This document shows positions 1-12,752 of a stretch of DNA of 36,848 nucleotides, piece after piece (the first letter of the stretch is position 1; every line of letters begins with the position of its first letter). A model generated the notes under the pieces. It was not told the DNA's origin, did no database searches, and saw nothing but the letters and a program-made list of their open reading frames with translations. The DNA comes from Actinomycetota bacterium (GTDB lineage: Bacteria > Actinomycetota > Geothermincolia > Geothermincolales > RBG-13-55-18): the NCBI GenBank assembly GCA_034188985.1, contig JAXHVT010000032.1, positions 1 through 36,848 of the forward strand. Direction: 5' to 3'. The position numbers were made by a program, and so were the translations under genes.

Positions 1-114
1 AACAACAAGATCAAGGTCATAAAGAGGGTGGCCTATGGGTATAGAGATGAGGAGTACTTCTTCCTGAAGATACGGGGAGCTTTCAGGCCGGCTACCCACA
101 CTTCTGGGAGATGA
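1..114 (+). CDS. 3' end of a DDE transposase, ISL3-family-like (partial; gene continues upstream of the window)
   Basis: Frame 1 from nt 1 reads NNKIKVIKRVAYGYRDEEYFFLKIRGAFRPATHTSGR then TGA at 112-114. The NNKIKxxKRxxYG[YF]R block matches my recollection of the conserved C-terminal segment of ISL3-family transposases. Family assignment is from memory and not searched. Confidence 0.5.
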   Translation, partial: NNKIKVIKRVAYGYRDEEYFFLKIRGAFRPATHTSGR

Positions 115-391
115 GCCATAATTGTTTATCATCTTTAAGATTGATATGTAACAGTTTCAAATCAGTTTGTACTGAATCCATGAGCGCGTCTCGAACAGCG
201 TCAATCAAAGAATTACCAATCTCGCGGTAATGGGATTCACCAGCAGTCCTTATAGAAGGTCGAAAGCCGTTACAAATATCATAATCGTGTATTCCAGTAG
301 AAGCATTGAAGTGTTCTATATAATACTTTAGCCATCGAACAAGGGTCGGAACCCTGCTGCTACCAAGAGCTAAAGAATAGACGGCAAGCAC
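92..391 (-). CDS. hypothetical 99-aa ORF; 5' end overlaps the upstream 434-aa gene by 22 nt and 3' end runs into the transposase stop region
   Basis: ORF track only. No motif recognised. It sits in the AT-rich block and overlaps the IS-like end, so it may be a gene truncated or fused by IS insertion, or it may be spurious. Confidence 0.2.
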   Translation of the reverse strand: MLAVYSLALGSSRVPTLVRWLKYYIEHFNASTGIHDYDICNGFRPSIRTAGESHYREIGNSLIDAVRDALMDSVQTDLKLLHINLKDDKQLWLISQKCG

Positions 392-1674
392 TCTTTATAC
401 CAGTAAGGTTCAACACCTGCTGACGGTTCAGTGCTAATCTTCGATGTCTTCGTTGGTGGGCGTGGACAAAAATAGGCATAAGCAAGCTGCATCCCCTTGT
501 CATGATGATCGCTTTCGAGCAACCTGACAATAGCTCTTGCAATATCCCTGGGATCAATTCTAAAGTTACCAATCTTATCATCGGGCCATTTTTTCATCTT
601 GTGGACAAGCCTTGCTAAATCAGCTGGGTCTAAAACCGTTGCGGCCTCTACAATCCCTCGCCTTACCCACTCATTGTTCGAACCAGCAATAGGCTCCAAT
701 ATATCTGCCACTTCTTTGCTGGCGATTGATACCATTCGAACAAGATAATCGATCTCTGGCCACAGGCCAGATAGAACATAACCATCAGTCTGAATCTTGC
801 TTTCGGGGGGATTAGCAAAGACACCTTGCTTTTTAAGTGCAGCTATCCAATATGGATTGTTCAACTTGGAATAAAAAGCTCTCCTCAATGATAGATTTCC
901 CAAACGAGCCAGCGCGGCGCGTACTTGTCCTTCACTTGGGTTTTTATATTTATATTCATTATTTAATACATTCGCTTGATTAATAAAATCTTGCAATTCA
1001 TCATAAACATCAAAGAAAGCCCCTAAGCGATTCCTAAGTGATGCTTCTATATTCTCAAGATGCGATAAAATTTCCCTTTCAGATGGCAAATTCCTTGAGC
1101 GTAATCCGATTGGAATTTTTCGCTTGAAGTGCACAAAGCTCATAAAATAATCACGCGCCGCTTTCCACGGCTTTACAGCTGGATCGTGAGCATCAATTCT
1201 CCCTAGCACTACAGCGGAATCGCGTTGAACTTCCCTAGTTGTTCCCTCGCTTACCGATTGAACTAACTCGCCTACTACATAAAGTAAACTTTGCGGTATA
1301 GTAACTAACTTGGGTTGCCCAATCTCTTCAACTTTATTTGCGTTCATATCTTCTGGCGGCAAACCACCAAAAGCTTCATACTCGTCAACGAGCAACTTCT
1401 GCCGTTCACGCTCTTCTTCTCTATCGCAATTAGCAGGAAGACCGTCCACATCATTTAGAGCATCCTGAATTGAATTCATCAACTCACGAAGACAGTGTCC
1501 TATCAGAGCAAATCGAGCCATTTCTTCGCCAGGCTCTGCAGGAACGGATAGCAGGTTTATCGTCCACCGATATAGGCCAGCAAGCTGAGGGTCTACATCC
1601 TGAAGCTGTTCATAAAGTGATTCCCTTTCTTTGTTCCATAGTTCAATATCTTTATCTGGTTCCATACAGACCAC
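370..1674 (-). CDS. hypothetical protein, 434 aa, second gene of the low-GC ATPase operon (candidate effector or partner)
   Basis: Long ORF in the AT-rich block, same strand as the ATPase gene and ~52 nt downstream of it. No family recognised by eye. Starts at GTG 1674 or ATG 1664. Contains R-x4-H strings (e.g. REILSH), but such strings occur by chance. Confidence 0.6.
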   Translation of the reverse strand: MVCMEPDKDIELWNKERESLYEQLQDVDPQLAGLYRWTINLLSVPAEPGEEMARFALIGHCLRELMNSIQDALNDVDGLPANCDREEERERQKLLVDEYEAFGGLPPEDMNANKVEEIGQPKLVTIPQSLLYVVGELVQSVSEGTTREVQRDSAVVLGRIDAHDPAVKPWKAARDYFMSFVHFKRKIPIGLRSRNLPSEREILSHLENIEASLRNRLGAFFDVYDELQDFINQANVLNNEYKYKNPSEGQVRAALARLGNLSLRRAFYSKLNNPYWIAALKKQGVFANPPESKIQTDGYVLSGLWPEIDYLVRMVSIASKEVADILEPIAGSNNEWVRRGIVEAATVLDPADLARLVHKMKKWPDDKIGNFRIDPRDIARAIVRLLESDHHDKGMQLAYAYFCPRPPTKTSKISTEPSAGVEPYWYKECLPSIL

Positions 1675-1726
1675 TCGTTATCTACATACATTCAGAACTT
1701 ACATATTGCGAGAGCTTGGCAGCCAC

Positions 1727-3883
1727 TTAACATCCGCTCATTTTTAGGTGATGATATTTGTCGTGTCGTTCGATGGTTCCAATTAAGAACTTAGATGACT
1801 CATGAATTTCAGAAGGATTTTTTGGTTGATTGGTTCTATGAGAATAGATATTACAGATATCCAATAGTTGGCGTAGTTTACGCTGCTCGGTATTTGATAT
1901 ATCTGCTTTCTCTTTACCAAAAAGAGCCTTGGAAATATCACCTGTATGAGCAGCAGTTGCAAAATCAACATTGACGCGAAATTTGACATATTCTTCAATG
2001 ATACGACGCATCGTGTTTGGCATATTTAAAGCATCGTCGTCGGAAATACTTGCTCCATCCATCTTTCTAAACTCATCAACTTTTTGATAAAGCCTCATGT
2101 ATGGTGTAAGTAATTTCTCTTTATTAACTGGATGAATGTTGCTAATCCCGCCATGCTTCTGGATTTCAAATAACGAAATCTTCTCGCCTTTTCGCCCGTA
2201 AGCAAGATTACAAAAATCATCCCACGAATGAGTTAGCACAAATATCTGTGCAGTCTCTTGATCTAGCATGCTGCAAATAAGATTTGTGATGTAAAACTTA
2301 TAATTGCCATCAAGACTAGATATAGGATCATCGATAACAATGAGTTTGATTGCATCTTTCAGCTTGCCAGACTTATCAATATGCATTTCGTAACAGAAAT
2401 AGATTAAAGATAGAAGATTCCGTTCCCCGTCGCTAATATCTTCAACTTTTATGCTCGGCCCATCAGTGTGGGTAATGGTGTACACCCCACCACTCAATGA
2501 GAGGTTAAAATCTATATTGAGATCTTTTAATATTGCATTTAAAAACCCTGCGAAATCAGCTAAATCTGACTTTTGCGCCAGCAAATGTTTATTCTCCAGT
2601 TCAAGTTTGATTTGTTGCTCGCGCAATTCTATAATCTGAGCGTCAGCAGCCTCAATTTCATCTATATTTTCTGTAATCGTGTTATTATTCTTGATTTCAA
2701 AACCAATTGCACCTTTTACCAATGTTTCGAGACGGTTAATTTTTTCATTTATATCCTTTGTACTCTGTGCCTTGGCGTCTTCTAATGCTTCCATTGCATC
2801 ACCAATATTTTTTATTGCATTAGGCAACATATTACTGTCAATCGTGTGTGTGATACCCATGTCCTTTATCTTCTTATCAATGTCCTCATTTATGAATATT
2901 AGAATCTGTTCCATGCTGACTGAGACGTCATCAAATTTCACTTTGCCGTCGGTGAGGCTAAGCACTTGCACATAAGTGTCTCTTTGATCAACCAACAGCT
3001 TCGCCACCTCGTAAAGTTCAAGCAGTGACTTCTTCAAAGTTTCCAGTATTTCGTTTGCCTTGTGCTTTTCATTATTTAGGTAAGCGTCCACACGCTTTCT
3101 TATTTCATCGATATCAATATCAGCACCACAAAACTCACATCGTTTCTTGCCTTTGTGAATTCCTATACCACCTTGCAGCCAGTTCACAACTTCGTACTCA
3201 GGCACATCAATGTATTCATATTTTGTTCCGAATATGCTTGCCAGGTCACCAAGTTTATTGTCATCAATTTCCGGCATTTTAGGGAACGTTATAAGGTTTA
3301 CCTGTTCACTTTCTGCAGAGAAATCGGCACTGCCAGTAATGGCATTATAGTCTTCGTTGGGAAAGTTTTTATCTGCATATTCATAATCCTTAACCCACAA
3401 ATAAATTTTTTCCTGAACGGTTTTGTTATCGGGTTTATTATTTATCTTCCTGTTCTTTCCTTTCCTACGCTTTACTATTTCTTTGATCAACTGGTCGGTC
3501 TGCTTAGTGAGGTTCTCTTTAATAACATTATGCTCGTCTATACTTTTTGTTAATTCGGCAACTTTCTTCTTGTTGACATCAACCTTATTCTCGATGTCTA
3601 CGTCTATTGCGCCAAAATTAGAAACGACACCACGAATTCCGGATCTGTCCTCCAATAGTAAGGTGCTCTCAACGTACTCGCTGTTAAAGAATCGTGCCGA
3701 ATCTTTACCGTTGATTTCCAGATACGCTTTTTTTATTCCGTGTGAAAGCGCGCTTTTTCCAGCACCATTACATCCAAATATTATGTTAGTTTGATTGAAT
3801 ATTGCGGTTTTTAAGTTGGACGAAGTTTTCCAAGATTTATAGATATGATTTTCAATATTTTTGACATACAATGCCTGACTCAA
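1727..3883 (-). CDS. SMC/ABC-type ATPase, RloC/PrrC-like (AAA_13-type) with CxxC zinc hook in a coiled-coil insertion; C-terminal ~190 aa of unknown function
   Basis: Walker A NIIFGCNGAGKSAL near the N-terminus. A ~450-aa K/E-rich coiled-coil insertion carries KKRCEFCGADID (CxxC). ABC signature ISDGERNLLSLIYF, Walker B KLIVIDDPISSLD and H-loop FVLTHS follow. TTG start with a GGGAGAGG Shine-Dalgarno ~9 nt upstream. Low-GC codon usage, unlike the rest of the window. Confidence 0.8.
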   Translation of the reverse strand: MSQALYVKNIENHIYKSWKTSSNLKTAIFNQTNIIFGCNGAGKSALSHGIKKAYLEINGKDSARFFNSEYVESTLLLEDRSGIRGVVSNFGAIDVDIENKVDVNKKKVAELTKSIDEHNVIKENLTKQTDQLIKEIVKRRKGKNRKINNKPDNKTVQEKIYLWVKDYEYADKNFPNEDYNAITGSADFSAESEQVNLITFPKMPEIDDNKLGDLASIFGTKYEYIDVPEYEVVNWLQGGIGIHKGKKRCEFCGADIDIDEIRKRVDAYLNNEKHKANEILETLKKSLLELYEVAKLLVDQRDTYVQVLSLTDGKVKFDDVSVSMEQILIFINEDIDKKIKDMGITHTIDSNMLPNAIKNIGDAMEALEDAKAQSTKDINEKINRLETLVKGAIGFEIKNNNTITENIDEIEAADAQIIELREQQIKLELENKHLLAQKSDLADFAGFLNAILKDLNIDFNLSLSGGVYTITHTDGPSIKVEDISDGERNLLSLIYFCYEMHIDKSGKLKDAIKLIVIDDPISSLDGNYKFYITNLICSMLDQETAQIFVLTHSWDDFCNLAYGRKGEKISLFEIQKHGGISNIHPVNKEKLLTPYMRLYQKVDEFRKMDGASISDDDALNMPNTMRRIIEEYVKFRVNVDFATAAHTGDISKALFGKEKADISNTEQRKLRQLLDICNIYSHRTNQPKNPSEIHESSKFLIGTIERHDKYHHLKMSGC

Positions 3884-4073
3884 AATATTCGACCTCTCCC
3901 CTGCACCCTAATGAAGCACGCCAATCCTGGATAGGTTCAGCACTACCATTGCATCTATTTTATCACGACTGCTCTGCTTTAGTCGCTTACCCTGAAAGCC
4001 CGATGCAAGTTATGGCTCTTGGCCTCAAATGCTATCGTCGTCTTGATTAACTTTCGTTCATTATCCCCAAGTC

Positions 4074-4259
4074 TTAGTATTTCCATTTTTCTCGTTCAGT
4101 CGCATCTTCGCACCAGACCAATTCGTCCCCCGTACGAGCCCTATACCTAGATGGCCGACAGCTTAAGAGATCATTGATCAGATTGGCTATATTCTTGTGA
4201 TTACGGTCGTCATCGTCTTTAGACACGTTTGACTCTATCAATCCTTGAGAGACATTCAC
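4074..4259 (-). CDS. small 61-aa ORF upstream of the ATPase gene (speculative)
   Basis: ORF track only. Lies in the AT-rich leader of the operon. No motif recognised. Confidence 0.15.
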   Translation of the reverse strand: MNVSQGLIESNVSKDDDDRNHKNIANLINDLLSCRPSRYRARTGDELVWCEDATEREKWKY

Positions 4260-4264
4260 ATAGG

Positions 4265-4334
4265 ATGGGGGTCAGGTCTCGAATATAGAGTAATTAACCA
4301 GTATATGGAATATATCTCGACAGGCTGACCCCCC
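4265..4334. terminator. inverted repeat GGGGGTCAGGTCTCGA ... TCGACAGGCTGACCCCCC with ~35-nt AT-rich loop, abutting the antiporter stop; coincides with the GC-content boundary
   Basis: Read directly: gggggtcagg at ~4267-4276 pairs with cctgacccccc at ~4324-4334. The antiporter stop codon (TAA on the minus strand) follows at 4335-4337. Confidence 0.35.
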
Positions 4335-7844: not shown

Positions 7845-8285
7845 TCAGGTGGCGTGAAATGTCAGCCGGTAGTTCCCCAGCTCCAGCACATCTCCGTCGC
7901 TGAGTACATACGCCTGCTGCGGGATGAGAGCGGTGCCGTTTACACAGGTGGAGTTGGTGCTATTGAGGTCCACTATATAATACTCGCCCTGCCCGCGTAT
8001 GATCTTGACGTGCATCCTCGAGACCCCCCGCTGCAGGGCGGCCTCATCCTCTAGGGTGACGTCCGGACGCTGCCCCCTGGCCGGATCGCCCCTGCCGATT
8101 ATGGCCTCCTTATCCTGCTCCAGTGAGTACTCTTTGCCCGTCTCCTCCGACCTCAAATGAACCCCCCTCACACCGAGAGGTGAAAGGTCCCCGGGTGCTA
8201 CCGCTTCAGCCAGGGGTGCACCGCAGCTGTCGCAGAACTTGGCGAAATCAAGGTTGTCGTTCCCGCACCGCGCACATCTCTTCAA
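7845..8285 (-). CDS. FHA-domain protein with N-terminal zinc ribbon
   Basis: 146 aa. MKRCARCGN...CDSCGAP (CxxC-x-CxxC) then an FHA core RMHVKIIRGQGEYYIVDLNSTNSTCVNG...LSDGDVLELGNYRLTF. Confidence 0.8.
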   Translation of the reverse strand: MKRCARCGNDNLDFAKFCDSCGAPLAEAVAPGDLSPLGVRGVHLRSEETGKEYSLEQDKEAIIGRGDPARGQRPDVTLEDEAALQRGVSRMHVKIIRGQGEYYIVDLNSTNSTCVNGTALIPQQAYVLSDGDVLELGNYRLTFHAT

Positions 8286-8301: not shown

Positions 8302-9633
8302 TCAGAACTCGGCCCTGAGGGCCTCGGTTATCTCCACCTTGGTGGCCTGACGCGCCGGGAAGACGCCGGCCAGAACCCCGACGACGAAGGCGGCGACGAA
8401 GGCTGCCAGCACCCCCCAGATGGTCGGGGAGGCGGGCAGCACGGTCATGTTGATGAGCAGGGATGCCGCGATACCCAGGGGTATCCCTATCAGCGCCCCC
8501 AGCATACACAACAGGATGGATTCGAAGAGGAACTGGAGGATTATCATGCGCTTGGAGGCACCCTGGGCCAACCTGACCCCTATCTCCTTGGTCCTCTCCT
8601 TAACCGATACGTACATGATATTCGCCACCCCCACCCCGCCGGTGATCAGAGAGATGGCCGCCACTCCGAAGATGAGGGCCGTCAAAACGTCGAAGATATA
8701 CTGGTAGGTATTCATGAGATCTTCCTGATCCTGGGTGTTGAAGTCCTGTTCACCGCCGTGATTCTCCATTACGGCAGCCTCCAGCGCGCTCTTGGCGACG
8801 TCGATGTTCTCCTCCGAATCCACTGCGGCATCGATCTCCAGTACAAGGTCCTCGAAACCCCCCGCCAGGGATTGGGCACCCTTCACCGGAATGTAAAGCT
8901 CCAGGTTGGGGTTATCGAACACTGTCTTGCGGCGTTCCTCCATCACCCCCACCACCTTGAAATCCATCGACTTCTCAGGGCTGGAGTTGGGGTCGGTGGG
9001 ATCCACGGCGGAGAGGTCGACATACTTTATGGTGATCGTCTTGCCCAGCACGTCCTCGCCTGTGGAACCGAACAGGGTGCTGGACACCAGGGTGCCCAGA
9101 ACGCATTCTCCGTCCACCTCGCTCGTTTCCTTCGACCCCCCGCCCCCCTCATCCGCCTTGAGGAAGCGTCCGTATGCCACCTCCACCTTGTTCATATCTA
9201 TGTAATGAGAGTCGGTGCCCTTGACGAAGGTCCTGGTCTGCTTGAGCTCGCCTCCCCCTCCTCCGCCCGTCTCGATATCGTAGACCATCTGGATCATGGG
9301 ATAAGCGTTATCTATATGCTGCATACTCCTGACGTCCTCCAGGTCCTGGATGGTGAGGGTGCTGGAGCCCAGGTTGGGCTGTGAGAGCATCTGTATCTGG
9401 CTGGTGGAGATGCCCTCCGTCTCCGAGACGGGCTCGCCGCTTCGCACTACCAGCAGGTTGGTGCCCAGGTTCTGGATCTCCTTGGTTATCTGGTTTCTCA
9501 CCCCTTGGCCCATGGCTATTAGGGCTATGACCGAGGCTATGCCGAAAATCACCCCCAGTATGGAAAGTATGGCCCGCATGGGATTTATCCTCAGGGAGCG
9601 TAGGGCGGTGCGGAATATCTCCTTCAGGTTCAC
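8302..9633 (-). CDS. ABC transporter permease, MacB/FtsX-like
   Basis: Real start most likely the GTG at 9633, whose GTGA overlaps the ATPase stop. N-terminal TM LRSLRINPMRAILSILGVIFGIASVIAL, a large periplasmic domain, then a C-terminal FtsX 4-TM region (KERTKEIGVRLAQGASKRMIILQFLFESILL...). The long ORF-track extension upstream is a GC-rich read-through artefact. Confidence 0.8.
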   Translation of the reverse strand: MNLKEIFRTALRSLRINPMRAILSILGVIFGIASVIALIAMGQGVRNQITKEIQNLGTNLLVVRSGEPVSETEGISTSQIQMLSQPNLGSSTLTIQDLEDVRSMQHIDNAYPMIQMVYDIETGGGGGGELKQTRTFVKGTDSHYIDMNKVEVAYGRFLKADEGGGGSKETSEVDGECVLGTLVSSTLFGSTGEDVLGKTITIKYVDLSAVDPTDPNSSPEKSMDFKVVGVMEERRKTVFDNPNLELYIPVKGAQSLAGGFEDLVLEIDAAVDSEENIDVAKSALEAAVMENHGGEQDFNTQDQEDLMNTYQYIFDVLTALIFGVAAISLITGGVGVANIMYVSVKERTKEIGVRLAQGASKRMIILQFLFESILLCMLGALIGIPLGIAASLLINMTVLPASPTIWGVLAAFVAAFVVGVLAGVFPARQATKVEITEALRAEF

Positions 9634-10631
9634 GGTCTCATACCTCCCACCGGCCGGGCTTTCAGGGCATCGTCCATGGCTCCCCCGCAGCTTATGCAGT
9701 ACCGGGCGAAGGGCCGGTTGGGGGTGCCGCAGTAGGGGCAGTCGACCTCGAGCCCGACCATCCTGCGTATGATGGTATCGGAAATCCGGGGGGCGACTTC
9801 CAGGGGGAAGCCGCAGTTGGCGCAGAATCCGGCCCGGGGGCGGTTGCCGAAGCCGCACCTAACGCAGATCTTCTGTCCGGCGGCCGGCGGCCCGGCCCTG
9901 CCCCCGGCATCGATCTCCGCACTGGTCACCACCTTGGACCTCACGGCCCGGTCCCCCACAATCCGGCCGTCCCTGAGCTCCACGATCCTTCCGGAATAAT
10001 TGGCTACATCCTTGTCGTGGGTCACCACGACTATGGTGCGACCCTGGGCGTTGAGCCGCTGAAGGATGCCCATGACCTCCCTTCCCGAGCTCTGGTCCAG
10101 GGCACCGGTAGGCTCATCGGCAAGGACGATGGCCGGCTGGTTGACTATGGCCCGGGCTATGGCCACCCTCTGCCTCTGACCTCCGGACAGCTCGTTGGGC
10201 TTATGATGCAGGCGGTCACCCAGGCTCACCGCCTGCAGGGCCCGGGCCGAGGCCTCCTTCCCCTCCTTCTTGGACATGCCCGAGTACTGCAGGGGAACGT
10301 TGACGTTGTTCAGGGCGTCCTCGTGGGGAAGGAGGTTGAAGGTCTGGAATATGATACCTATATGCTTGTTGCGTATCCTGGCCAGCTGCTTGTCGTCGAG
10401 GTCGCCGGCGCTTGTGCCGCTTATCCTTACCGTGCCCGACGTGGGCTTGTCGAGGCAACCGGCGATCTGCAGCATGGTCGATTTGCCGCAGCCCGATGGC
10501 CCCATGACGGAGACCATCTCCCCCTCCGCTATCTCCATGTCGATTCCCTTGAGGGCATGTACCTGGCTCTCGCCCATAGTGTAGACCTTGGTAACCCCCG
10601 CGAGCTGCAAAACGGGATAATCCACTACCAA
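9630..10631 (-). CDS. ABC transporter ATP-binding protein (MacB/LolD type) with C-terminal double zinc-ribbon extension
   Basis: GPSGCGKST Walker A, LSGGQRQRVAIARA signature, IVLADEPTGALD Walker B, VTHD H-loop. The C-terminus adds CVRCG...CANCG and CPYCG...CISCG (two CxxC-x-CxxC ribbons). Confidence 0.85.
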   Translation of the reverse strand: MVVDYPVLQLAGVTKVYTMGESQVHALKGIDMEIAEGEMVSVMGPSGCGKSTMLQIAGCLDKPTSGTVRISGTSAGDLDDKQLARIRNKHIGIIFQTFNLLPHEDALNNVNVPLQYSGMSKKEGKEASARALQAVSLGDRLHHKPNELSGGQRQRVAIARAIVNQPAIVLADEPTGALDQSSGREVMGILQRLNAQGRTIVVVTHDKDVANYSGRIVELRDGRIVGDRAVRSKVVTSAEIDAGGRAGPPAAGQKICVRCGFGNRPRAGFCANCGFPLEVAPRISDTIIRRMVGLEVDCPYCGTPNRPFARYCISCGGAMDDALKARPVGGMRP

Positions 10632-10825
10632 CCTCCCGAAGCATTCCCTCTATCGCTACTGCAGATTATAACAGCCGGCGATGGTGTCAGCCCCCCCAAC
10701 ATTTTTAAGTTGGATGGGGTCGGGTCTCCAGGAATGCCTTGGGCATCATCCCCGCCTGCGTTCATGGCGGGGTTTGTGCTACGAGATCACTCCGTGATGG
10801 CGTTGGTGGAAGGTCTGGTTCAATA

Positions 10826-10848
10826 GGGGCTCAACGGTGTTGAGCCCC
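10826..10848. terminator. perfect hairpin GGGGCTCAAC-ggtg-TTGAGCCCC downstream of the DUF3795-like gene
   Basis: Read directly: 9-10 bp GC-rich stem and 4-nt loop in the intergenic gap between the DUF3795-like gene and the ABC ATPase gene. Confidence 0.4.
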
Positions 10849-10882
10849 TACGATGATTCTATCGGGCCGGAACCTGTTTCTT

Positions 10883-11341
10883 CTAGGTTTTCTTCTTGCG
10901 GACCGGGCTGTATAACAACGGGCCCTCGTCGACCCAGCGGTTCACTCCCACCTTCTTTATCTTCCTGAGGTTCTTGATGTGCGCGTCGCCGTGTACGGGG
11001 ACCAGGAAATCCATCTTGCCGCAGTCGGCGAACTCGCCGCATTCCCAGCAGCCCTCGTATCCCCTCTTGATGGCACACTTAGCGATCTCGCAGAACTTGG
11101 AGCGGCCCCCGACCTTGCAGCCCTTGCACCTCAGCTTGACCAGGTTCCCCATGAATTCATACGCCTCCTGGTACTTCTCGGAATCCATGAATGGAATGGC
11201 CTCGGCCACCTTGTCGAATCTCACTTTTCTGAGCTCCTTGCGCAGGTCCCGTGCCAGATCCGGGATAGTCCCCTCGCAAAAGGAGCACTCCCCACAGTAC
11301 AAACCACAGTAGGCCGTCATCTCGGTGCGTTTTCCCGCCAT
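10883..11341 (-). CDS. DUF3795-like cysteine-rich protein
   Basis: MTAYCGLYCGECSFC... followed by further CxxC pairs (CKGCK, CWECGEFADC). Start probably at the internal Met (MAGKRTEM...). Confidence 0.55.
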   Translation of the reverse strand: MAGKRTEMTAYCGLYCGECSFCEGTIPDLARDLRKELRKVRFDKVAEAIPFMDSEKYQEAYEFMGNLVKLRCKGCKVGGRSKFCEIAKCAIKRGYEGCWECGEFADCGKMDFLVPVHGDAHIKNLRKIKKVGVNRWVDEGPLLYSPVRKKKT

Positions 11342-11357
11342 AGTTGATCCTCCTCTC

Positions 11358-12752
11358 TTATCCACCCTTCGCTTGAGTGCATTCTCTCATGACCCCGGTC
11401 ATAAAATCGTGCTTGACCTCGTCGGCCCCGCGCCACAGGGGCTCGACCTTGCGCAGCCAGCCCCCGAATTCCACGGGATGTTCGGGGTAACGTTCGTAGA
11501 ACCCTTTCAGCCTCGCGGCCGCGATCCCCACCTCGGCTATGGAGGCCAGCTTCCTCGGGCTGAGCTTTCCGCCCACCACTCCCCTGGCTATGCCCAGCAG
11601 AACCCTCAGGGCATCGGCCGGGTTGGACACCAACTCGTATTCCAGGTTCAGGACCTGGGTACCCTCAGCCGTTAGAAGACCCGGCACGGTGAAAAGGTAC
11701 TCTATCTCGTCCTCACCCAGGGAAGCCAGACAGGGGATGACCGCCATGAGAAAGGCGAACTTGGACCCCTGGTCGCGAAAATAACGCAGATTGTAGGGCC
11801 ACAGCGCCTCCTTGGAGAGATCGTCGCGGGACAGGGCATCGGCGGCTACCTCGGCCGCGATGCGGCAGGCGGTTAACGCAGAGACGACTCCCTCCCCGTT
11901 GAAGGGTTTGCTCATGAAGGCGGCGTCACCCACGACCATGAAACCGTTGTCCACCAGCGAGTAGGGCGGCCGGCGGTAGGGCACCCTCCCGATCGTTACG
12001 CTGCTCGCCTCCCCAGCGAATGGCAGGGTTGCCGCGAAAGCCTTGTGCCTGTTTCTGGCGGCATCAGGGCTGGCGGGGCAACCGATTCCCACGATGATCT
12101 CCTCTCCCACGCTGGGGGCGTACCAGCCCTGGGCATGGAGATAAGAATTGATGTCCGGCTCGATATCCCCGACGATATCCCGCCACGACTCCATGTAGAC
12201 GACGAGGGTATCGAGGTCATGGACGGGGTCGTTCTCTAACCAGGGGCTGGAGGGCATAGAGGTCCTCACCCTGCCGTCGATTCCCGAGGCGTCCACGACC
12301 AGGTGGCTCCTTATCTCCAGGTCGCCGTTCTCCCCCCGCGCCCTGAGTCCGCCGGGGAATCCTCCCTCCCTTATCACCTCCAGGAATTCCGTCCGCTCCA
12401 GGAACTCCACCCCGGCTTCCCTGGCGTAGCCGTGAAGCCTGCGCATGAACAGGGGTTTGTACATGTTCATGGTGGGCACCCGGGAGGTAATGCCATGCTC
12501 TCCGCTCGGCGACCACATGGTTATATATTCCAAGGCATGCAGCAGCTCTTCTCCGGAGGGAAGCGGGATACCGGACCTCTCGAAGCCCACCTTCTCGATA
12601 TGAAAGGGCCCGATATCCTCCCCCAGTTGGTCCAGGCTCTTCCCCTCCACTACCAGGCACCTGAATCCGGCCTCCGCCAGCTTCCAGGCGAAGTAGCCGC
12701 CCGAGGTACCGGCACCCACCACTACCGCATCCGCCTCCAGGCTCTCAGCCAT
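11358..12752 (-). CDS. FAD-dependent oxidoreductase, geranylgeranyl-reductase family
   Basis: N-terminal Rossmann DAVVVGAGTSGGYFAWKLAEAG. Central GDAAFMSKPFNGEGV, the GDAAG-type FAD motif of GG-reductase-like enzymes. 464 aa. Confidence 0.8.
   Translation of the reverse strand: MAESLEADAVVVGAGTSGGYFAWKLAEAGFRCLVVEGKSLDQLGEDIGPFHIEKVGFERSGIPLPSGEELLHALEYITMWSPSGEHGITSRVPTMNMYKPLFMRRLHGYAREAGVEFLERTEFLEVIREGGFPGGLRARGENGDLEIRSHLVVDASGIDGRVRTSMPSSPWLENDPVHDLDTLVVYMESWRDIVGDIEPDINSYLHAQGWYAPSVGEEIIVGIGCPASPDAARNRHKAFAATLPFAGEASSVTIGRVPYRRPPYSLVDNGFMVVGDAAFMSKPFNGEGVVSALTACRIAAEVAADALSRDDLSKEALWPYNLRYFRDQGSKFAFLMAVIPCLASLGEDEIEYLFTVPGLLTAEGTQVLNLEYELVSNPADALRVLLGIARGVVGGKLSPRKLASIAEVGIAAARLKGFYERYPEHPVEFGGWLRKVEPLWRGADEVKHDFMTGVMRECTQAKGG

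Follow-up and report, generated by a model that had tools for sequence, protein, structure and literature searches.

A probable decayed remnant of a Dsr1/Avs7-sensor-type anti-phage module next to an RloC/PrrC-like ATPase gene in an Actinomycetota contig

Does a gene located directly downstream of an RloC/PrrC-type ATPase gene encode the effector of that ATPase, or does it belong to a different system? The question is raised by the beginning of contig JAXHVT010000032.1 (GenBank assembly GCA_034188985.1) of an Actinomycetota bacterium from the order Geothermincolales (RBG-13-55-18); positions 1 to 36,848 of its forward strand constitute the window analyzed here. An open reading frame (ORF) of 434 codons lies there close to a gene encoding a 718-aa AAA_13 ATPase. 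A reading made from the letters and ORF translations of the window, without database searches (the sequence-only reading), had described the ORF product as a 434-aa partner of the ATPase with no recognizable family, possibly a new effector. Our analysis leads to another answer: the ORF is probably a decayed remnant of an anti-phage module with a sensor of the Dsr1/Avs7 type, lying beside an independent RloC/PrrC-like ATPase gene in an acquired island of low guanine-plus-cytosine (GC) content.

The starting observations were reproduced. The ORF and the ATPase gene are co-oriented, with the ATPase gene upstream, and the intergenic gap is 52 nt if the ORF starts at GTG, as originally stated, or 61 nt if it starts at ATG, as in its NCBI record (P0001, 431 aa). 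Likewise, comparison of the 434-aa product with Pfam, NCBIfam, and PADLOC gave nothing significant. What the ORF consists of became clear from its relatives. A search of 5.8 billion proteins yielded eight of them, seven of which are 239-251 aa long and cover only residues 1-240. No other homolog of 434 aa was found: homologs of residues 1-240 either end at about 240 aa or reach about 1,200 aa. In a 36-kb contig (locus L001), two genes, A (239 aa) and B (974 aa), overlap by 4 nt (ATGA), and the N-terminus of the gene B product aligns with residues 245-434 of our ORF and then with a 99-aa ORF in another frame of the window (92..391). The closest relative, locus L085, also has separate A and B genes; identity is 70% in protein A and about 86% in DNA over the aligned frameshift region. 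Against these two loci, the ORF and its surroundings resolve into the following features.

370..1674, minus strand: the 434-codon ORF, a composite of domain A and the first part of B.
964..1674, minus strand: domain A (ORF residues 1-237), intact; match to the A profile with E 2.3e-80.
955..975, minus strand: junction of the A/B fusion, located by DNA alignment with L085 and L001.
373..963, minus strand: first B fragment (ORF residues 238-434, corresponding to B positions 4-198); hmmsearch A4, E 1.9e-88.
370..380, minus strand: frameshift, one T fewer than in L085 in the T-run at 376-377.
119..376, minus strand: second B fragment (B positions 196-284) in the other frame, within the ORF 92..391; hmmsearch A4, E 3.1e-19.
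1..117, plus strand: end of an ISL3-family insertion sequence, with the last 37 transposase codons (1-111) and the stop codon (112-114).
1727..3883, minus strand: gene encoding the AAA_13 ATPase of the RloC/PrrC type, 718 aa; Pfam AAA_13, E 1.9e-64.

Three lesions are seen in this part of the window. First, a 23-nt deletion relative to L085, at about 965/966, has removed the last codons of A together with its stop codon and the start of B, and has thereby put A and B into a single reading frame. Second, at the frameshift the window reads CCGTCTA-TTCTTTAGC and L085 reads CCGTCTATTTCTTTTGC; the loss of one nucleotide from the T-run brings the TAG at 370-372 into frame, which ends the ORF. Third, similarity to B stops at about 119 and the end of the ISL3 element occupies 1-117, so B is truncated by the insertion sequence (IS) at about position 284 out of about 970. 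The last 24 residues of the transposase match positions 217-240 of the 240 positions of DDE_Tnp_ISL3 (E 7.2e-6, 26.4 bits at a cut-off of 23), and 3-5 nt separate its stop codon from the end of the element. The contig starts within this element, and the assembly probably broke at the ISL3 repeat; therefore, the remaining part of B may be located on another contig of this metagenome-assembled genome (MAG). Thus, the ORF noted in the sequence-only reading does exist, but its length of 434 aa is an accident of three mutational events, the 23-nt deletion, the 1-nt deletion, and the IS insertion, and the gene is broken.

A and B are strongly linked outside the window. An exhaustive profile search with domain A gave 399 clusters at 50% identity (E ≤ 1e-3), whose members are either proteins of about 200-260 aa or the N-termini of proteins of about 1,150-1,250 aa. 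B is found in proteins of about 970 aa or in natural A-B fusions of about 1,200 aa, as in Cryobacterium sp. GrIS_2_6 (P0034) and Arthrobacter globiformis. From genomes and from metagenomes scanned with the B alignment, 64 non-redundant loci were collected, 50 of which were evaluable, that is, contained the N-terminus of B and enough upstream sequence. In 49 of these 50 loci, A either immediately precedes B as a separate gene (40 loci) or is fused with it (nine), while in the remaining one, L081, a SIR2 gene occurs instead. A scan of the genome collection with A patterns gave only three loci. The family is hosted mostly by Actinomycetota and is found in soil metagenomes; tblastn against plasmids gave distant sensor-like matches only, and a search against phages gave no match. 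The window contains this same module, with A retaining every conserved residue and followed by the first part of B.

The genes next to A-B modules encode GmrSD, BrxL, a giant helicase, type I and type IIG restriction-modification systems, McrBC, SIR2, NACHT, and CHAT proteins, as well as toxin-antitoxin pairs, integrases, and a serine recombinase, which is a neighborhood typical of defense islands and mobile elements. Some variation in domain content was also seen. An extra N-terminal DUF4062 domain is present in the A proteins of loci L050 (8854-10041), L052, and L069 (8815-9945). A protein of about 1,350 aa, P0168, was shown by scanning to carry an N-terminal helix-turn-helix of the XRE type, and P0171, P0180, and P0190, being similar to it in length and in the matched region, presumably carry one as well. 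Finally, P0041 (1598 aa) is a distant B homolog without A, fused to a thioredoxin-like domain (PF03190, PF13899), an unusual partner for the sensor.

B is related to the sensor of Dsr1. The PADLOC Dsr1 model PDLC04166 matches B homologs with E-values of 8e-12 (L001), 3e-35, 2e-44, 1.5e-48, and 3.8e-51, and the matched part comprises the C-terminal ~700 residues of B, aligned with model positions ~500-1215. The fused protein of locus L062 is matched over positions 292-1214 of the same model, starting at its own residue 163; hence, the A-like N-terminus stands at the place of SIR2 in Dsr1. The exceptional locus L081 (8982-12853) has a 297-aa SIR2_2 gene just upstream of a B-type gene, the called ORFs overlapping; the former is similar to the SIR2 part of the Dsr1 model, and the latter to the sensor part of the Dsr1 models. 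This locus is in effect a split Dsr1 and demonstrates effector swapping on the same sensor. Pfam and PADLOC scans, which readily detect SIR2 in L081, found none in the ORF or its homologs. A PDB sequence-profile search with B gave no match. According to a 2026 preprint (PMC12803255), the Dsr1 sensor is common to Avs7 and recognizes the phage major capsid protein, which is bound by the sensors of both EcDsr1 and Avs7 (SeAvs7), and the effectors paired with it vary, one being a "HEPN-like RNase" (ribonuclease) in a protein of Streptomyces sp. NBC_00271. In the window, only B positions 4-284 are kept and the whole Dsr1-matching region is absent, the ORF itself giving no PADLOC match; it is thus through homology to the N-terminus of B that its sensor is assigned to the Dsr1 type. 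As the sensor has been lost, the system in the window is most likely non-functional.

An intact module comprises a helical A protein of about 230 aa, encoded directly upstream of an alpha-solenoid B protein of about 970 aa and overlapping with its gene by 4 nt or fused to it, with A taking the place held in Dsr1 by the SIR2 NADase. By analogy with the EcDsr1 and Avs7 sensors and the major capsid protein, B could bind a phage structural protein. Bound B would then switch on A, either in cis or as a separate subunit, and A would damage nucleic acid or another essential molecule, leading to abortive infection in which the cell is killed or arrested. We infer that A is most likely a metal-independent nuclease, with Y35, H60, R63, E64, N67, H182, E210, and N235 as its candidate working residues.

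An AlphaFold2 model of domain A based on 69 sequences is an all-helical bundle with pLDDT (predicted local distance difference test) of 89.3 and pTM (predicted template modeling score) of 0.82, in which long helices are formed by residues 15-43 (kinked), 51-73, 128-157, and 199-235; it supersedes an earlier prediction from eight sequences, which was poor (pLDDT 58). Among the 69 sequences, only 20-30% identical to each other, R63, H182, E210, and N235 are invariant, Y35, H60, E64, F220, and F221 are nearly invariant, and N67 is present in 59. Judging from helix geometry, H60, R63, E64, and N67 (i, i+3, i+4, i+7) would share one helix face. The sole Pfam family recurrently matched by domain A itself is PF18165 (pP_pnuc_1, "predicted pPIWI-associating nuclease"), found in 9 of 51 divergent members with E-values from 2.4e-5 to 0.05, whereas the window protein gave no match to it. 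A literature search on pP_pnuc_1 retrieved no paper on this family, and a PIWI paper that was consulted gives no description of the domain. Taken together, the conserved residues and this family match suggest that A is probably an enzyme of an undescribed family and most likely a nuclease.

The sequence-only reading had proposed two R-x4-H strings as possible catalytic motifs of the HEPN kind, and neither of them is conserved. In REILSH (R200-H205), most of the 69 sequences have E (18), D (17), or A (10) at position 200, so that the arginine is not a conserved one, and H205 is histidine in only 34. RLLESDHH (residues 384-391) lies outside A, in the N-terminus of B, where the arginine occurs in 10 and the histidine in 11 of 19 sequences. 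A similar spacing, R54-x5-H60, occurs on an earlier helix of A, with R54 in only 45 of 69 sequences, and no HEPN family of Pfam matches A. A relationship to HEPN is possible, the likeness of A to both HEPN and pP_pnuc_1 being weak. We also considered A as a detached nuclease domain of the PrrC type; hhalign against the AAA_13 nuclease domain gave a probability of 0.1%, and this idea was dropped.

Several results weigh against our interpretation. The remote-homology check suggested for this protein was mostly empty: Foldseek of A against PDB and BFVD found nothing at E ≤ 0.001, a PDB sequence-profile search with A found nothing either, and no significant match of A to any enzyme family was found, which leaves the pP_pnuc_1 signal in relatives. 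That signal is itself partial: the score shown, 20.9 bits, is below the gathering cut-off of 26.3, and of the 133 positions of the profile the reported matches cover only about the first 41. The R-x4-6-H motif that a HEPN domain would carry where its last core helix begins is not conserved in A. Among the best 150 matches, A was found solely together with B, a pattern that is not usual in a plug-in effector and that a regulatory subunit could show as well. As for the window itself, the loss of the single base may reflect faulty assembly of the MAG, the IS junction being less easily dismissed as an artefact. Finally, the three cases of a co-oriented AAA_13 gene upstream of A-B, described below, are somewhat above chance expectation and leave a small chance of coupling.

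Some of these results would be expected if A were a regulatory, adaptor, or oligomerization subunit, or else a four-helix bundle that binds a metal or a ligand, with the killing done elsewhere, for example by the N-terminal ~240 residues of B or by a host factor. Such a role would explain why A accompanies B only and why catalytic families do not match it; the strongly conserved N-terminus of B does contain many invariant residues, and in P0041 the thioredoxin-like domain is found where A would be. Nevertheless, we regard it as unlikely. A sits exactly where Dsr1 has SIR2, and in L081 it is SIR2 that stands in place of A. Conservation of R63, H182, E210, and N235 in all sequences, and of Y35, H60, and E64 in nearly all, at such a low overall identity is typical of an active site, and the only recurrent Pfam signal comes from a family named as a predicted nuclease. 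As to metal binding, a di-iron site of the hemerythrin type would require more conserved histidines than the two that A has. An effector role for A, in a module decayed in the window, thus appears preferable.

The relation of the ORF to the ATPase depends in part on whether the latter needs a partner. In PADLOC, the ATPase matches the one-gene candidate PDC-S06 (E 7.2e-46) and, at a lower level, PrrC (E 9.1e-7). It has a Walker A motif at residue 37, a CxxC motif (249-252) in a long insert, a Walker B motif at residue 516, and a C-terminal triad R626-x3-E630...H682, of which R626 and E630 are invariant among four aligned AAA_13 C-termini. This pattern corresponds to the catalytic triad of PrrC and to RloC with its zinc hook (PMC1484252, PMC2610378), and the ATPase thus brings its own predicted nuclease domain. 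It appears self-sufficient and is probably an independent one-gene system, a look-alike of the RloC-type anticodon nucleases, rather than the gate of a separate effector as the sequence-only reading implied. No type I restriction-modification system is adjacent to it in the window.

If the ORF nevertheless encoded the effector subunit of a two-gene system, co-transcribed with the AAA_13 ATPase gene and with its toxicity controlled by the ATPase, the co-orientation of the genes, the gap of 52-61 nt, and the location of both genes within one low-GC island would be accounted for. No terminator-like or promoter-like site was detected on the minus strand in this gap, by a scan that over the whole region performed no better than on shuffled sequence. 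Co-oriented AAA_13 genes also occur upstream of A-B in a Cryobacterium lineage (L004/L005 and L058, with a fragment at the contig end in L017) and, in degraded form, in L011. Yet of the 36 A-B loci in which 1 kb or more of sequence precedes the module, 33 have no AAA_13 gene directly upstream, the three exceptions being L004 and L058, which represent one lineage, and L011. The adjacent AAA_13 proteins are only about 20-29% identical to the window ATPase, in partial alignments, and the Cryobacterium ones come after a type I restriction-modification system, the arrangement found for PrrC. L085 and the window are similar in DNA only as far as the start codon of A and share no sequence upstream of it. 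In view of the rare adjacency, found in two lineages, the low identity, and the break in L085, a conserved neighborhood with AAA_13 ATPases is largely absent. The ATPase, as said, matches a one-gene system with a nuclease triad of its own, and the ORF has an obligate partner, B, rather than the ATPase. The gated two-gene system is therefore quite improbable; A-B is autonomous, and the AAA_13 neighborhood is best explained by the clustering of defense genes. Of the suggestion of a new effector, the effector-like, defense-type domain outside the curated libraries stands, and its assignment to the ATPase does not.

In the Cryobacterium lineage, the conserved block in L004 (1670-13630; Cryobacterium sp. 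GrIS_2_6) and L058 consists of HsdM, a 394-aa gene, HsdR, an 810-aa AAA_13 gene, and A-B. The 394-aa gene occupies the HsdS position and has no Pfam match, and the gaps are about 30 nt or less. The AAA_13 proteins of the two loci are 76% identical; L004 has A-B as a fusion and L058 as two genes.

It is very improbable that the truncated protein, in which 197 residues of B follow A, is still produced and has a function of its own, for instance as an unregulated toxin that is kept in check or as a decoy. A is complete with all conserved residues and the start codon is preserved behind an intact gene with no terminator-like site detected between them, but a single gene has suffered three independent lesions (deletion fusion, frameshift, IS insertion), this length occurs in no other homolog, and in locus L086 another IS has ended B after 196 residues. 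In this last locus (9054-11800), A is intact and B is interrupted by an IS3-family element with an rve transposase. This points to repeated inactivation and not to selection favoring a truncated product; the locus adjoins a 603-aa ORF that, by sequence reading, resembles a large serine recombinase.

Beyond the decayed module, a bolder generalization may be offered tentatively: A could represent a new effector class, a helical-bundle enzyme with H-x2-R-E...H...E...N as its active site that is not a classical HEPN, linked almost exclusively to capsid sensors of the Dsr1/Avs7 type and mostly as a separate, translationally coupled subunit, which in some lineages might cooperate with an upstream RloC/PrrC-like AAA_13 nuclease.

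The low-GC island comprises positions 1-4300 of the window, where GC content is about 37-43%, compared with about 54-66% in the rest. It contains the IS end, the broken A-B gene, the AAA_13 ATPase gene, and nothing else. GC content jumps at about 4250-4330, beside a cation/proton-antiporter-like gene. Neither a tRNA gene nor an integrase was seen at the island boundary, there is no tRNA gene anywhere in the window, and a search of the island DNA against plasmids gave no match. The high-GC host portion of the window includes a 146-aa ORF (7845-8285, minus strand), whose start resembles a zinc ribbon (CxxC...CxxC) and whose end resembles an FHA domain (by sequence reading).

What appeared to be an operon of an ATPase and its partner is thus two unrelated defense genes side by side. 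One of them has already been disabled, through a frameshift and an IS, and the locus illustrates how quickly defense islands turn over. A Dsr1/Avs7 sensor with a swapped effector is already known; what is new is an effector domain outside the curated libraries, with no characterized relative and none of solved structure. About 400 clusters carry a Dsr1-type sensor in which the sirtuin is replaced by this domain, and as the domain is absent from Pfam, NCBIfam, and PADLOC, such systems are missed by current defense-system finders. Once worked out, the function of A would add an effector chemistry to the scheme of bacterial immunity based on a sensor with swappable effectors, and the split form provides a natural system for the study of a sensor activating its effector in trans.

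Each component can be compared with a known system. PrrC and RloC share with the window ATPase the ABC-type motifs, the CxxC hook, and the R-x3-E...H triad; they are self-contained one-protein RNases, for which no partner of the A or B type has been described (PMC1484252, PMC2610378). RNases of the HEPN type (MNT-HEPN toxins, RnlA/LsoA, the C-terminal domain of AbiA) belong to defense systems, like A, and carry R-x4-6-H, while the conserved residues of A are those of the motif H60-x2-R63-E64-x2-N67, located on an earlier helix, and H182, E210, and N235. The pP_pnuc_1 family, whose nuclease function is itself only predicted, matches divergent members of the A family in the stretch from Y35 to the H-x2-R-E motif. 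Dsr1 (PDLC04166, PDLC04167, PDLC02183) is likewise found in defense islands and has the same layout, with the effector at the N-terminus and a large helical sensor behind it. It differs in carrying SIR2, in place of which the A+B family has an all-helical domain of about 230 aa, and in being a single polypeptide, whereas A+B modules are mostly encoded by separate, translationally coupled genes (40 of 49 loci). The protein of Streptomyces sp. NBC_00271 (PMC12803255) similarly combines a Dsr1-type sensor with a non-SIR2 effector in an Actinomycetota host, and the proposed logic is the same, the capsid-bound sensor activating the N-terminal effector. Should this protein prove to be of the A+B type, the window would simply hold one more member of its family, and a broken one.

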